Source: a virus
Length of the DNA stretch: 35,119 nt
Virus genome (UHGV): UHGV-0196339
Reading direction: 5' to 3' (one strand)
Both the position numbers and the translations under genes were made by a program. The notes beneath the pieces are model-generated. The model made no database searches. It saw only the letters and a program-made list of their open reading frames with translations, and was not told where the DNA came from. Positions within the stretch are counted from its first letter, which is position 1. Every line of letters starts with the position of its first letter. Positions 6,149 to 11,406 of the stretch are shown here, in pieces.

Positions 6149-6553
6149 TCACCTACCCTTAGTTTCGTTATAGTCACGACCAGCGATACGGTTATTACCA
6201 CCAGAAATATTTAACTCACGTCCTGATGGCTGAGTTTCCTTTTCACTGACCGCACCTTTTAAAGCCCCGATCACCGCGTTTTTCACATCTAACGAAGCTG
6301 CTCGAAAGCGAGTAATCAACTCCTGCTCATCATCGTTATAAGTTTCAGGTGAGTGAATTCCCAACACAACATACTGAACATCAAGGCCAAAACGAGACAG
6401 CGCTGCCAAATACGCAGCATCAGGAAAGCTATCTCCTTTCTCATATCTAAGCTGAGTTAGCTTTTTGACTCCACCAATGTCGCTCATAGCAACTTGACTA
6501 AGCCCCAATCTTTCCCTTTCCTCACGCAACCGCTGACCAATATCATTTTTCAT
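6149..6553 (-). CDS. XRE-family HTH repressor (cI-like immunity repressor)
   Basis: 134 aa. N-terminal HTH (LGLSQVAMSDIGGVKKLTQLRYEKG). Divergent from the early operon. First gene of the repressor-cargo-int operon. Confidence 0.75.
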   Translation of the reverse strand: MKNDIGQRLREERERLGLSQVAMSDIGGVKKLTQLRYEKGDSFPDAAYLAALSRFGLDVQYVVLGIHSPETYNDDEQELITRFRAASLDVKNAVIGALKGAVSEKETQPSGRELNISGGNNRIAGRDYNETKGR

Positions 6554-7347: not shown

Positions 7348-7643
7348 GCACCATCAACCACCAGAAGCTACGCGAACTGGCATTTGCCCTGCAACGAATG
7401 GCAACGCCTCAAAAATTACTGGCATTTCGCGCAATGCTCTCGCCGTCTGCTGTGCTGGCACTGCTGGATGAGCTGGAGCACGCCAGAACCACGGCTCCTG
7501 CCATTCGCCTGACGCTCCATCATGAAATCGCTGATTTCTGCGCGACGTTGGAGGCGCCGGGCGAACCGGAAACGCCGGAAGCAATACAGCAAGAGCTGCT
7601 GCAACGCATTGACAAGGTTTTTGATTTTTTTCTGAACCAGTAA
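7344..7643 (+). CDS. Hypothetical early protein
   Basis: 99 aa, AAGGAAG SD, ATGA overlap with the preceding gene. Confidence 0.5.
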   Translation: MSTINHQKLRELAFALQRMATPQKLLAFRAMLSPSAVLALLDELEHARTTAPAIRLTLHHEIADFCATLEAPGEPETPEAIQQELLQRIDKVFDFFLNQ

Positions 7644-7734
7644 GAAACCAGAACATGCACACACAAAAAAACCGCTTGCCATGCCTCAATAGGTCAGGTT
7701 ACATTTCCGCTGCACCTCATAAAACGGGTGCCGG

Positions 7735-7920
7735 GATTCTCAACCCGACACAGAGCAAAGCGCATAACCGCGCAAGCGGTTTTTTTGTGCGTACTGTATT
7801 GCCACGTCTTTTTCGCGTCAGAATTATGGCGGGGCGTACGGGGCCGACTTTGGTCGGGCCGGATTCTTTGCTCTCCGGTGTTGAGAACCCTGTACGTCTC
7901 GCCACCCCGAGATTCTCAAC
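7735..7920. repeat. Three copies of GATTCTCAAC-like motif (two direct, one inverted) flanking a terminator
   Basis: GATTCTCAACCCGACACAGAGCAAAG at 7735-7760. Its imperfect reverse complement at 7866-7889. GATTCTCAAC again at 7911-7920. Confidence 0.4.
7766..7787 (+). terminator. Rho-independent terminator within the early region
   Basis: AACCGC-gcaa-GCGGTT followed by TTTTTT. Confidence 0.5.
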
Positions 7921-7965
7921 TCTGGATGGTGAGTTATTTCTATCACCGAGCAAAGAGGCCACACC

Positions 7966-8196
7966 ATGGCAAACCGCAAACAGCACCGCGCTATCGCGGA
8001 GCGTCGTCACATCCAGACTGAAATCAACCGCAGACTTTCCCGCGCATCACGCGTCGCGCAAATCATGCACATCAATATGCTGCATGAGCGCAGCCACGCA
8101 CTATCAAACATTTATTCCGCCTCTGTTTTCAGCTATCTGGCGGATGATCTGCACGAGCTTCAACAGCTCATCCAGCAGCAAAACAAACTCCATTAA
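7966..8196 (+). CDS. Hypothetical small helical protein (early region)
   Basis: 76 aa, AGAGG SD 8 nt upstream, compositionally protein-like. Confidence 0.5.
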   Translation: MANRKQHRAIAERRHIQTEINRRLSRASRVAQIMHINMLHERSHALSNIYSASVFSYLADDLHELQQLIQQQNKLH

Positions 8197-8268
8197 TTCC
8201 TGTTCCGGGCCTTTCCTGCACCTTGCGGCGGGAGGCCTTCGCACATCTGTAACAAGAGGATTGCCGCA

Positions 8269-8634
8269 ATGATTCTCGCCAACGACTTTCTTGAATACCT
8301 GCTCAACACAGAACGTGATCTTGCCGCTCGCGTGCGTGATCGTTATGACATGTACCTGAAATCCCTGCCTGTACCGCAGCTCGCTGACGGAAAGATTGTT
8401 ATTGAAGATCGCTACATGATTGACAGCCACGAGGGAAATTACAGGCTTTACCGCATTGAAGGTGGCACCCCGTCCGTTATTGGCATTTACCAGCGCCCAT
8501 CCTCTGCAATCGTCGATGTGATTGCCGACAGCATCCGCATCACACATCGCCATGCCGACACAGAAGACACCGTGCTGGAAATTCAGCGGCTGGCTACAGT
8601 CTGCCGCGACACCCTGAATGGCATGACGAAGTAA
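8269..8634 (+). CDS. Hypothetical protein immediately upstream of the replication gene
   Basis: 121 aa, AGAGGA SD. Stop lies 6 nt before the gene A start. Confidence 0.55.
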   Translation: MILANDFLEYLLNTERDLAARVRDRYDMYLKSLPVPQLADGKIVIEDRYMIDSHEGNYRLYRIEGGTPSVIGIYQRPSSAIVDVIADSIRITHRHADTEDTVLEIQRLATVCRDTLNGMTK

Positions 8635-8640
8635 ATCACT

Positions 8641-11406
8641 ATGACGGCAGAGTACATCAGGGACTGGCAACAACCGCGCCACGCAGTGGGGCGTGAAGGA
8701 ACGGGGATCCCCGCTCCTGAATCCGCGCTTTCCTCCTGGCTGGATGCCTACCGGGCAGAGAACGAGCGCCGCCAGGAAATGGCTGATGCGGCGTTCTCCG
8801 CCACGCCGCTGGGCAACCTGATTAATAAAAGCCTGGACGCACAGGAAAAACAGGACAAAACCATCACACTGGCAGGAGACGCCAGAAAACAGGCACGTGG
8901 CGCGGTGGATGAAGCCATGGCCTCGCTGCGCCTGCTGCCGACCTATCTGCGCGATCCGCTTATTCGCCACCTCTCCTTCCTGCGCAAAAAACAGGAAGCC
9001 GATCGTCAGAAAGGAAAAAACGCCAGGCAGGCAGAACGCTATGCGCGTGGGACCCTGCGCAAAATATTCGAACGTCTGGAGCGCACCGATCACCGCTGGC
9101 TGACACCGGGTTATCGCTCCCTTGCCGGACGCGAACGCCTGGACAATTTGCTTTACCTGCCGCAGCTCAACAAACACCAGATACAGACGCTGGCCACCAT
9201 GACGGCGGCGATGTTCAGCAGCACCTTCGAAAAACTCTGCGATGGCTTTGGCGCGACCGATGGCGAGCTGACCATGGATGTAACCCTGAAGGCGTATCAG
9301 ATGCTGGCCCGCATAGCGTTACACCTGCACGCCATGCCTCCACATTATGACGCACTGACAACAGACAAAGACCGGAGGAACGAACCGGACACGGAGCTGC
9401 TGCCGGGCGCAATCCTTCGCCTGACCTGTGCGGAATGGTGGAAACGCAAACTGTGGCTGTTACGTTGCGAGTGGCGGGAAGAACAACTCCGCGCCGCCTG
9501 TCTGGTTTCCAGAAAGACATCACCCTATCTGAGCCAGGACGCGTTAAGCGAGTTTCGCGCACAGCGCGAGAAAACACGCGATTTCCTGAAAAGTTTCATG
9601 CTGGAAAACGAAGACGGGTTCACGATTGATCTCGAGACAGTGTATTACGCGGGAGTAAGTAACCCGGTTCACCGTAAGGCAGAAATGATGGCCACCATGA
9701 AGGGGCTGGAACTTCTGGCCGAAGCCCGTGGCGACAGAGCGGTGTTTCTGACTGTCACCTGCCCGTCAAAATACCACGCAACAACGGAGAACGGTCATCC
9801 GAATCCCAAATGGAACGGGGCCACTATGCGCGACTCCAGCGATTACCTGGTTAACACGTTTTTTGCAGCGGTCCGCAAAAAACTGAACCGCGACGGCCTG
9901 CGCTGGTATGGCATCCGCACGGTGGAGCCTCATCATGACGGCACGGTGCACTGGCACATGATGGTTTTTGCTCATCCTGACGAGATTGAAACCATCGTGT
10001 CCCACGTCTGCGATATTGCCATTCAGGAAGACCGCCACGAGCTGGGCGATGACATAACTCCGCGTTTTAAGGCGGAGTACGTCGACGGCTCAAAAGGCAC
10101 ACCAACCAGCTATATCGCGACCTACATCGGAAAAAACCTGGACAGCCGCGCCGTGGATGGCATCGACCCGAAAACGGGCAAACCACGCGTTGACCACGAA
10201 ACCGGAAAATCAATGGCCGAGAGCGTGGAGCGCGCCATCGGCTGGGCGCGCCTTCACCGGGTCCGCCAGTTCCAGTTCTTTGGCATCCCCTCCCGTCAGG
10301 TGTGGCGTGAACTGCGCCGCCTTGCCAGCCAGATGGCACGCAACCCGGAAGGCCCGCAACGGCTGAAGGATGACGCAATGGATGCGGTACTCGCTGCCGC
10401 TGATGCCGGGTGTTTTGCCTCCTACATTGAAAAACAGGGTGGCGTACTTGTTCCACGCAAGGACTACCTGATTCGCACCGCCTACGACCTCGCAGATGAG
10501 CTGAACGATTACGGCGAACAGAGCGTACAGATTTACGGGATCTGGTCACCACTCATCGGGGAATCCTCCCGTGTGTGCACGCACCCGGATAACTGGAAGC
10601 TGGTAAGACGTAAACCGGAAGCGGAAGACAGCACCCGCGAAAATGATTTTGACCTTCAGGGCGGCCCTGCCGCCCCTTGGACTCGTGGCAATAACTGTCC
10701 CCGTGTACAGGAAACGGACAACAACGGGACAGAACAGCAGGAAGAACGGCCAGCACTGTGGCCGCAGCTTCCTGACGGCGTTGATGTGGATGAATGGATG
10801 CGCTCACTGAAACGGCACGAACGCCGGGCGCTGATGCGTTCGCTTCGTGACAAACAGGCAAAAAACAGCAGTGATGAAATGCAGAGCTGGACACAGAGCC
10901 GCAAACAGCAGCGGCCTTTGCCTGATAACCACGAATTACTCGCTAAAGAATGGCGGGAATCTGCCGAATCTCTCGGCCTGCATATCGGTGAACAGCAGAT
11001 GCAGCACCTGTTACGAGGCGGCAGTCTGTACGTTGACGGCAGCATCATTGCACCGCAGGGATTTGAAATTGTACGCAAACCAGATACCCGACCGGACAGC
11101 CGAATCACGCAGCTCTGGCAGCGCCTGAGCCGTAATCACGGCGTAAACAGCACGGAAATCCGCCATAACCCGGTTTCCAGCTATCTGAAACAGCTCGGGG
11201 CATCAGACCCTGAAGCCGCTGCACGCCTGGCATCCACAATTCAGCAGGACCAGAGCACCATGAAAACTCCCGTTACCGTGCTTTCTGACATGCTGCGCGC
11301 CATCCGTGACGCAGAGCACGCACAGAGAATCAATGAAACCACTGAACGCGCACGTCACAAGGCGGGTCTGTTGCAGGACAAAGGCAATAGCGAGAAGAAA
11401 AAATAA
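8641..11406 (+). CDS. A: Gene A-type rolling-circle replication initiation endonuclease
   Basis: 921 aa. TVTCPSKYH, VEPHHDGTVHWHMMVF (HUH motif) and YIATYIGKN (catalytic Tyr motif) match P2 gpA. Long low-complexity C-terminal extension. Confidence 0.9.
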   Translation: MTAEYIRDWQQPRHAVGREGTGIPAPESALSSWLDAYRAENERRQEMADAAFSATPLGNLINKSLDAQEKQDKTITLAGDARKQARGAVDEAMASLRLLPTYLRDPLIRHLSFLRKKQEADRQKGKNARQAERYARGTLRKIFERLERTDHRWLTPGYRSLAGRERLDNLLYLPQLNKHQIQTLATMTAAMFSSTFEKLCDGFGATDGELTMDVTLKAYQMLARIALHLHAMPPHYDALTTDKDRRNEPDTELLPGAILRLTCAEWWKRKLWLLRCEWREEQLRAACLVSRKTSPYLSQDALSEFRAQREKTRDFLKSFMLENEDGFTIDLETVYYAGVSNPVHRKAEMMATMKGLELLAEARGDRAVFLTVTCPSKYHATTENGHPNPKWNGATMRDSSDYLVNTFFAAVRKKLNRDGLRWYGIRTVEPHHDGTVHWHMMVFAHPDEIETIVSHVCDIAIQEDRHELGDDITPRFKAEYVDGSKGTPTSYIATYIGKNLDSRAVDGIDPKTGKPRVDHETGKSMAESVERAIGWARLHRVRQFQFFGIPSRQVWRELRRLASQMARNPEGPQRLKDDAMDAVLAAADAGCFASYIEKQGGVLVPRKDYLIRTAYDLADELNDYGEQSVQIYGIWSPLIGESSRVCTHPDNWKLVRRKPEAEDSTRENDFDLQGGPAAPWTRGNNCPRVQETDNNGTEQQEERPALWPQLPDGVDVDEWMRSLKRHERRALMRSLRDKQAKNSSDEMQSWTQSRKQQRPLPDNHELLAKEWRESAESLGLHIGEQQMQHLLRGGSLYVDGSIIAPQGFEIVRKPDTRPDSRITQLWQRLSRNHGVNSTEIRHNPVSSYLKQLGASDPEAAARLASTIQQDQSTMKTPVTVLSDMLRAIRDAEHAQRINETTERARHKAGLLQDKGNSEKKK

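Follow-up and report, generated by a model that had tools for sequence, protein, structure and literature searches.

Introduction

The immunity region of the satellite P4 and the immI region of phage P1 are each built around a small antisense RNA, and here we describe what is very probably a cassette of the same type in a P2-type phage: a 322-nucleotide (nt) gap, positions 7644-7965, in the early operon of the virus genome UHGV-0196339, of which the whole stretch of 35,119 nt was analyzed (hereafter the window). In P4, the order of elements is PLE - seqA - cI/CI RNA with seqB - seqC - kil - epsilon - orf151 - cnr - alpha. The CI RNA is processed and blocks replication-gene expression by premature termination (PMC4825925). 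The P1 immI region runs P51a/b - a1 b1 - c4 - a2 b2 - icd - ant, and the P1 record annotates a1, b1, c4, a2, and b2, with the remark 'repression of icd ant translation'. For both P1 and P4, control is documented to act at the ribosome-binding site of the ORF that follows and, by way of it, on transcription further downstream. The C4 precursor is a substrate of RNase P, a processing step that is documented only for P1/P7. For N15, Ravin et al. are said to have described in 1999 an anti-immunity region, gp32-gp31-gp30, in which a small processed RNA controls the antirepressor.

A related arrangement is the isrK-orf45-anrP region of Gifsy-1, where IsrK has its own promoter and a leaky terminator and where read-through yields an mRNA that is inactive in translation (Hershko-Shalev et al. 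2016, PMC4825925). Both read-through at the IsrK terminator and trans-activation by IsrK have been shown in this system, and IsrK pairs with a downstream conserved non-coding stretch, processed to the ~80-nt STnc1160 (PMC4825925). IsrK has been called a structural homolog of P4 seqA (PMC4825925), and according to a published statement the C4 and isrK profiles detect relatives of CI and seqA. We found no paper describing such a cassette in P2-like phages.

A tandem of IsrK- and C4-type RNAs in the early operon

The gap extends from the stop codon (7641-7643) of a 99-amino-acid open reading frame (ORF) to the ATG at 7966 that opens a 76-amino-acid ORF. A preliminary description, made from the sequence alone, had recognized a stretch of about 320 nt without a convincing ORF and had suggested an Rfam scan, RNA folding, and a covariation analysis across homologous phages. 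The stretch is indeed non-coding and structured. When the whole window was scanned with Rfam, exactly two matches exceeded their gathering scores; both were full length and both fell in the gap, one to the IsrK family, whose name refers to Hfq binding, and one, about 40 nt further on, to the C4 family. We therefore read the gap as a two-RNA immunity cassette of the P4-immunity/P1-immI type, in the early operon of a P88-like P2-type phage, and hold this explanation, meaning the architecture and the inferred mechanism together, with considerable confidence. Its parts are as follows, with the sites a1, b1, a', b', a2, and b2 named by the P1 nomenclature taken from the annotated P1 record.

7676..7705, + strand: candidate promoter P_isrK (-35 TTGCCA at 7676-7681, 18-nt spacer, -10 TACATT at 7700-7705; predicted start near G7712)
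7712..7786, + strand: IsrK/seqA-type small RNA (Rfam RF01394, 61.9 bits against a gathering score of 50, model positions 1-77 of 77)
7737..7744, + strand: site a1, UUCUCAAC, in the loop of IsrK hairpin 2, complementary to a'
7752..7760, + strand: site b1, AGAGCAAAG, in the single-stranded tail of IsrK, complementary to b'
7822..7909, + strand: C4/CI-type antisense RNA gene (Rfam RF01695, 77.6 bits against a gathering score of 45, model positions 1-87 of 87)
7864..7874, + strand: b' recognition loop, UUCUUUGCUCU, in C4 hairpin 2, pairing with b1 and b2
7880..7887, + strand: a' recognition segment, GUUGAGAA, in the single-stranded 3' junction of C4, pairing with a1 and a2
7913..7920, + strand: site a2, UUCUCAAC, the first downstream C4 target
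7948..7957, + strand: site b2, GAGCAAAGAG, the second downstream C4 target, overlapping the Shine-Dalgarno sequence (7953-7958) of the ORF at 7966

From a fold of 7712-7800 and a terminator scan, IsrK consists of hairpin 1 (7712-7731), hairpin 2 (7732-7747), a single-stranded tail, and a terminator (7766-7781) with a U-run to 7786. The intrinsic terminator that had been pointed out at 7766-7787 (stem 7766-7771/7776-7781, T-run 7780-7786) is thus the 3' end of IsrK. C4 is enclosed by a 17-bp closing stem, 7827-7843/7888-7904, which had been overlooked, and holds two 5-bp hairpins, hairpin 1 at 7844-7857 and hairpin 2 at 7858-7879; a GC hairpin noted earlier at about 7841-7860 corresponds to the first of these (7844-7848/7853-7857). 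The RNA carries an AUUAU|GG 5' context and a GCCACC 3' end, both of which are also present in P1. Judged from the homologous P1 c4, whose ends are annotated, mature C4 is predicted to span approximately 7828-7906, ending in GCCACC.

The recognition sites also account for the repeats in the gap. A 26-nt element at 7735-7760 with an inverted copy at 7866-7889 had been correctly described, but the element is bipartite: its first half-site, GGATTCTCAAC (7734-7744), is a 91% reverse complement of 7880-7890, and its second, AGAGCAAAG (7752-7760), a 100% reverse complement of 7866-7874. A third direct copy, placed earlier at 7911-7920, proved to be real as CCGAGATTCTCAAC at 7907-7920. It is accompanied by a third copy of the second half-site that had escaped notice, GAGCAAAGA at 7948-7956, which lies on the Shine-Dalgarno sequence AAGAGG (7953-7958). 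Two further elements had likewise been missed, the promoter-like TTGCCA-18-TACATT (7676-7705) directly 5' of IsrK and a 21-nt inverted repeat (7659-7679/7772-7792). By 8-mer counts over the whole 35 kb, each half-site is unremarkable taken singly; for both 8-mers, however, all three copies fall inside 220 nt, with matching order and orientation.

In the C4 RNA, b' (7864-7873) can pair with b2 (7948-7957) and a' (7880-7887) with a2 (7913-7920). The minimum-free-energy fold of the read-through RNA, 7712-7975, has b2 paired with b', so that b2 and with it the Shine-Dalgarno sequence is predicted to be sequestered.

Paired sites change together among related phages

For comparison, we collected 80 related IMG/VR loci through the epsilon-like protein encoded by the ORF at 7966 (92-100% identical), which reduced to 38 distinct versions of 7706-7975. 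Variation in these is concentrated in the recognition sites: nucleotide diversity was 0.334 in the six patches versus 0.078 in the remaining gap. For the upstream pairs (a1:a' and b1:b'), 96.4% were paired across the 38 variants and 10 of 17 had changed on both sides, made up of 4 of the 8 pairs in a1:a' and 6 of the 9 in b1:b'; the latter helix was 100% paired, with up to four pair types at one position. The covariation score of the upstream pairs was 0.640, compared with 0.122 for shuffled pairings (0/500) and 0.05-0.17 for slid partners. The downstream pairs (a':a2 and b':b2) behaved similarly, with 94.4% paired, 9 of 18 covarying, and a score of 0.545 versus 0.129. Some variants have G-U pairs in place of Watson-Crick pairs.

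The scaffolds around the sites are far more uniform. In the internal helices of IsrK and C4, 96.2% of cells were paired (100% in the three C4 helices, 84-100% in IsrK), with few compensatory changes overall; four pairs in the C4 helices had changed on both sides.

Within these scaffolds, we counted at least 10 b' loops and 5 a' junctions, and the a and b modules re-assort. The 38 variants contain 11 a'/b' combinations, and two more came from other loci (Salmonella and another assembly), giving 13. Predicted duplex energies averaged -23.5 kcal/mol for cognate and -11.4 kcal/mol for non-cognate combinations, and the cognate target was the best in every row. An exact search for the b'-a' string of the window returned 39 matches, all in a P88-like context with the epsilon-like ORF, and none of these 39 placed the specificity of the window in another phage type.

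The strong covariation that we obtained supports one of the roles that could be imagined for the repeats, and the preliminary description was right to look to pairing in RNA: three-way compensatory change, tolerance of G-U pairs, and placement in a loop and a junction of a conserved RNA all point to RNA-RNA pairing. Its two specific proposals, an antiterminator and a DNA-level iteron or regulator site, fared less well and are weighed below.

A proposed mechanism for control of the downstream genes

The cassette is followed on the same strand by three genes that it could control.

7966..8196, + strand: P4-epsilon homolog, 76 amino acids (Pfam PF25738, 'Derepression protein', 32.7 bits against a cut-off of 27; phrog_3688)
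8269-8634, + strand: 121-amino-acid ORF (phrog_3237)
8641-11406, + strand: gene A, replication endonuclease gpA (PF05840, 431.7 bits)

The epsilon-like protein is 29% identical to P4 epsilon over 66 amino acids (E 4e-9), and its counterpart in P88 is annotated 'derepression protein'. We found no terminator-like site on the + strand between 7787 and 9000, and we treat the three genes as one transcription unit.

Most likely, the two small RNAs silence the gene that follows through base pairing at its ribosome-binding site. The architecture, the complementarity, the covariation, and the predicted occlusion of the Shine-Dalgarno sequence come from the sequence, and for the remaining steps we rely on the characterized homologs. 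The candidate promoter at 7676-7705, which has the geometry of P1 P51b and P4 PLE, would make IsrK, and part of the transcripts would read through the IsrK terminator, as in Gifsy-1. C4 would be excised from this read-through RNA, with RNase P presumably making its 5' end as in P1/P7, and would then pair with a2 and b2, in cis or in trans, to block translation of the epsilon-like ORF. By analogy with P4, the untranslated mRNA would be terminated early by Rho, and this polarity would keep expression of the 121-amino-acid ORF and gpA low. IsrK carries the a/b sequences of the mRNA target and could compete for C4, relieving repression as a decoy or serving as one more target.

C4 acting in trans would also silence a superinfecting phage with the same a/b sequences. 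Because C4 could act in this way, identical a/b sequences would be expected to confer superinfection immunity, and such immunity would explain why the a/b sequences diversify and re-assort.

The base composition downstream bears on the termination step. The epsilon-like ORF is C-rich and G-poor, with a GC skew of about -0.29 over 7960-8120, which is compatible with Rho loading, if weakly so, as the sequence upstream shows the same skew. Separately, a GC-rich imperfect hairpin with no T-run, GGGCCTTTCC...GGGAGGCC, lies in the 72 nt (8197-8268) that separate the epsilon-like ORF from the 121-amino-acid ORF.

Alternative explanations

The preliminary description had suggested that the inverted copies pair across the terminator as an antiterminator-type switch. 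A cis-acting attenuator of this kind, with pairing between 7735-7760 and 7866-7889 deciding whether the terminator forms, would make sense of two complementary arms with a terminator between them, and the Gifsy-1 read-through RNA does form a cis helix between the middle part of IsrK and the downstream region; that helix, however, governs translation and not termination (PMC4825925). In the window, the downstream arm (7864-7887) is made some 80-100 nt after the U-run and so could not compete at the moment of termination or pre-empt the terminator at 7766-7787. Neither arm overlaps the terminator stem (7766-7781), as one strand of an alternative helix would. The sole stretch complementary to the terminator is 7659-7679, which pairs with its 3' half and not its 5' half. 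Moreover, the loop and junction that hold the 3' arm belong to a separate, Rfam-defined RNA with conserved helices of its own, and the third copy, on the Shine-Dalgarno sequence, covaries equally well, although an attenuator would not need it. We consider attenuation improbable. The second suggestion, that the copies are iterons or operators for a DNA-binding protein that co-evolves with them, draws on the replication gene downstream and on the fact that direct and inverted copies would covary too if the binding specificity changed. But across 13 site combinations the flanking ORFs keep an identity of 89-100%, which leaves no co-varying protein, and the two half-sites re-assort independently and are unequally spaced in the three copies (7, 5, and 27 nt). 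The G-U pairs of the variants would be mismatched repeats as DNA, and the sites coincide with a hairpin loop, a junction, and a Shine-Dalgarno sequence of RNAs whose homologs have been characterized experimentally. Sites of this kind seem to us very unlikely. We give almost no credence to a protein-coding gap, either as an 'Ash family' protein (the 205-amino-acid ORF 7655..8272) or as one of the 97-amino-acid ORFs. These ORFs do span the gap, there is a weak match to Pfam Phage_ASH (E 1e-3; 19.9 bits, under the cut-off of 26), and the Prokaryotic Genome Annotation Pipeline (PGAP) adds the note 'similar to ash family protein'. A conserved reading frame is excluded, however, because homologs have 1- and 2-nt indels (alignment columns 40, 78-79, 106, 163-164, 218, 240, and 263-264) that shift any frame. 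The variation is RNA-compensatory, not codon-like, the 205-amino-acid ORF crosses the well-supported epsilon-like ORF out of frame, and the Phage_ASH model itself matches a P4 stretch now known as the CI RNA gene.

The same cassette might instead serve mainly as a trigger of induction and not for immunity, with IsrK that accumulates under stress titrating C4 or opening the ribosome-binding site, and the epsilon-like protein then derepressing this or another P2-like prophage. Gifsy-1 provides a precedent (PMC4825925), IsrK shares its a/b sequences with the mRNA target, and P88 prophage has been recovered after mitomycin C, whereas classical P2 is regarded as non-inducible. Against it, we found no stress-responsive element near the candidate promoter: the gap has no LexA box, and the sole CTGT-N8-ACAG match lies within gpA. 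The epsilon-like protein is also nearly invariant across repressor types, which argues against a specific antirepressor. We regard a role in induction as a possibility, and a rather doubtful one; it is compatible with the two-RNA immunity cassette that we favor and does not exclude it.

Several points weigh against the immunity cassette as we have described it. In the window phage, each step, including the RNA ends, the promoter activity, and the repression, is read from sequence, and the candidate promoter reaches just 9 of the 12 consensus positions. The function of the epsilon-like protein would follow from its 29% identity to P4 epsilon, and its near-invariance fits poorly with a repressor-specific antirepressor, so the antirepressor assignment is weak. 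Polarity on gpA is an analogy. The precedents also differ on IsrK, which acts as an activator or decoy in Gifsy-1 and as a termination co-target in P4 (PMC4825925), so that in the window IsrK may act in either direction. Finally, any transcript that begins at the early promoter has to get past the IsrK terminator before it arrives at gene A, a step for which the proposed scheme does not account.

The candidate promoter and a 21-nt inverted repeat around IsrK

Both hexamers of P_isrK, with 9 of 12 matches to the consensus, are invariant in the homologs. In P1, the promoter P1c4/P51b has the same geometry as in the window, its -10 hexamer ending 6 nt ahead of the isrK/c4-a1b1 match, and in P4 the PLE sequence TTGCCT...TATAGT occupies the equivalent position. 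A second sigma-70-like site, TTGCCA-17-AATTAT at 7799-7827, lies directly before C4. We judged it unlikely to be a promoter because a start there would truncate the C4 stem; its -10 hexamer is the conserved AUUAU leader of C4, which is also present in P1.

The candidate promoter and IsrK are bracketed by the 21-nt inverted repeat, whose upstream arm is the following.

7659..7679, + strand: left arm of the inverted repeat, ACACACAAAAAAACCGCTTGC, 95% complementary to 7772-7792

This arm contains an A7 tract and overlaps the -35 hexamer. It is invariant in all variants and marks where the conserved cassette starts on the left, regardless of the upstream gene. In a fold of 7644-7800, the arm pairs with 7772-7792 (z-score -5.8) and the terminator hairpin is lost at equilibrium. 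We also considered the arm as an antiterminator and found this doubtful: its pairing partners, the 3' half of the terminator and the U-run, are the last to be transcribed, and termination might still occur at a stem abutting a U-run. Covariation offers nothing to draw on, as the arm is invariant, and the A7774C change is uncompensated. Candidate functions for the arm are an RNase III site, a terminator of leftward transcription, or an UP element together with the -35 hexamer. The arm is absent from the P4, P1, and lambdoid cassettes that we compared; N15 has a weaker analog, 19 nt long and 74% complementary to its IsrK terminator.

Genome context and distribution

The window phage is a P2-type phage of the P88 group (Peduoviridae, Xuanwuvirus). 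Upstream of the gap are a repressor gene (6149-6553, minus strand), a divergent promoter pair, an Arc-like gene, and small early ORFs. Relative to vB_EcoM-569R5, identity is 93% over 7600-8300 but 84% over the gap. The epsilon-like protein is 89-100% identical in phages with at least four repressor types, whose repressors are unrelated or 35-48% identical. Repressor type and C4 type assort independently, such that one C4 type occurs with several repressors and one repressor with several C4 types.

We found the cassette (7655-7965) in 1171 of 5426 complete E. coli genomes, approximately a fifth, at 1352 places and with up to four per genome. No annotation lies under the cassette match in the 15 E. 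coli records listed; GenBank labels for the gap, from PGAP or from depositors, are 'hypothetical protein' or 'similar to ash family protein'. When species-representative genomes were scanned with the epsilon-like protein, only three loci were found, in Salmonella, E. albertii, and a Vagococcus assembly. The last of these, NZ_JBQPOM010000071.1, is labeled 'Vagococcus sp.', a Gram-positive, and contains an Escherichia-type P88-like prophage region with the cassette, probably through contamination of the assembly.

The 'ash' label has a bearing on annotation more generally. Pfam PF10554 (Phage_ASH) matches the obsolete P4 'cI protein' coding sequence with 59.7 bits (8168-8584, minus strand), over the CI/C4 RNA gene and a2/b2. 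We conclude that the Phage_ASH 'protein family' at least partly models translated RNA genes. The same model also matches, weakly, the spurious +2-frame ORF 7655-8272 across the gap of the window. A census of P4-like satellites has used Phage_ASH as its marker for 'epsilon' (PMC8628076).

Implications for phage immunity

If the cassette works as proposed, P88-like P2-type phages gain an RNA layer of control over lysis-lysogeny and replication that classical P2 and 186 do without. Its place before the replication gene of a helper-type phage and its natural specificities, at least 13 in number, make it noteworthy. Helper-type phages and P4-like satellites would be linked through a common immunity/epsilon module, and the 13 specificities in near-identical scaffolds would be natural orthogonal antisense RNA/target pairs that could be used for heteroimmunity tests or as regulators.

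A bolder and less likely reading is that the cassette is a second, RNA-encoded and rapidly re-assorting 'barcode' immunity, independent of repressor type, which gates the epsilon-type protein and gpA and sets superinfection and cross-activation among related prophages. P88-like phages, as potential P4-like helpers, would in that case share the logic of the satellite, and the a sites that the two have in common with inverted roles (UUUCCAC/GUGGAAA and UUCUCA/UGAGAA) could let helper and satellite RNAs pair.

Comparison with known systems

By Rfam, the isrK-C4 tandem is also found in P4, P1, N15, an N15-like phage, the Stx phage PA2, mEp460, a Salmonella phage, and P88, whereas Rfam detects none in the early regions of P2 or 186. 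For P4, P1, and N15 the layout of the sites agrees as well; for lambdoid phages the finding is the tandem alone.

The arrangement in the window, with its epsilon-like ORF, 121-amino-acid ORF, and gene A, is closest to P4 immunity. P4 has the same tandem, with isrK at 60.8 bits (the seqA leader) and C4 at 74.9 bits (the CI RNA), and the parts follow one another as in the window: a promoter directly upstream (a candidate in the window), IsrK with a1 in the loop of hairpin 2 and b1 in the tail, the intrinsic terminator, the C4-type RNA, and then a2 and b2, of which b2 covers the Shine-Dalgarno sequence of the first ORF. The controlled operon of P4 likewise contains an epsilon-family gene and a replication gene downstream. 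The two differ in that the window is a full P2-type myovirus and P4 a satellite, and in the first controlled ORF, which is the epsilon homolog in the window, with no kil ORF, and kil in P4, where b2 lies on the kil Shine-Dalgarno sequence. The replication genes belong to different families, gpA being a rolling-circle endonuclease and alpha a primase-helicase, and the 121-amino-acid ORF has no similarity to P4 orf151. The spacer between IsrK and C4 is ~40 nt in the window and ~110 nt in P4, and the polarity of the a element is inverted, a' being GUUGAGAA in the window and UUCUCAC in P4.

P4-like satellites with 98-100% identical epsilon proteins have a diversity of their own: at least 13 combinations drawn from 7 b' loops and 3 a' junctions, and in each of them the upstream and downstream targets correspond. 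The P4-like a' sequences (UUUCCAC, UUCUCAC) equal the a1/a2 targets of some P88-like types, and the P4-like targets (GUGGAAA, GUGAGAA) resemble P88-like a' sequences. The polarity of the a element is therefore inverted between the two groups, and a P4-like antisense RNA could form 6-7 nt of pairing with a P88-like one. The P88-like and P4-like sets have two genome identifiers in common, too few for statistics.

The site order in P1 is identical to that in the window. In P1 too, the C4 junction holds a', the loop of hairpin 2 holds b', and b2 covers the Shine-Dalgarno sequence of the first ORF. P1 scores 68.8 bits with C4, and its upstream part prefers c4-a1b1 (51 bits) to isrK (35 bits), the reverse of the window (15 bits with c4-a1b1, 61.9 bits with isrK). 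In P1 the cassette forms a separate operon, and the genes under its control encode a cell-division inhibitor and the antirepressor Ant, with no replication gene among them.

In Gifsy-1, the controlled gene encodes the lambdoid-type antirepressor AnrP, with no replication gene, and IsrK is reported as an activator (PMC4825925). The nucleotide sequence of Gifsy-1 'orf45' is conserved and its amino-acid sequence variable, and it sits where Rfam places C4 in related lambdoid cassettes. The Gifsy-1 paper (PMC4825925) likens the 'orf45' region to P4 CI; C4 and P1 are not named there.

The N15 tandem scores 62.4 bits with isrK and 78.8 bits with C4, and the three-way complementarity is visible in it. 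N15 and the window have identical a' (GUUGAGAA) and a2 sequences but different b sequences; downstream in N15 are icd-like and antirepressor genes, and the cassette comes after the replication gene, whereas in the window it comes before. The cassette is thus of a known kind, the IsrK/seqA plus C4/CI switch, and what is new is its unannotated occurrence in P2-like phages, ahead of an epsilon-like gene and gene A.

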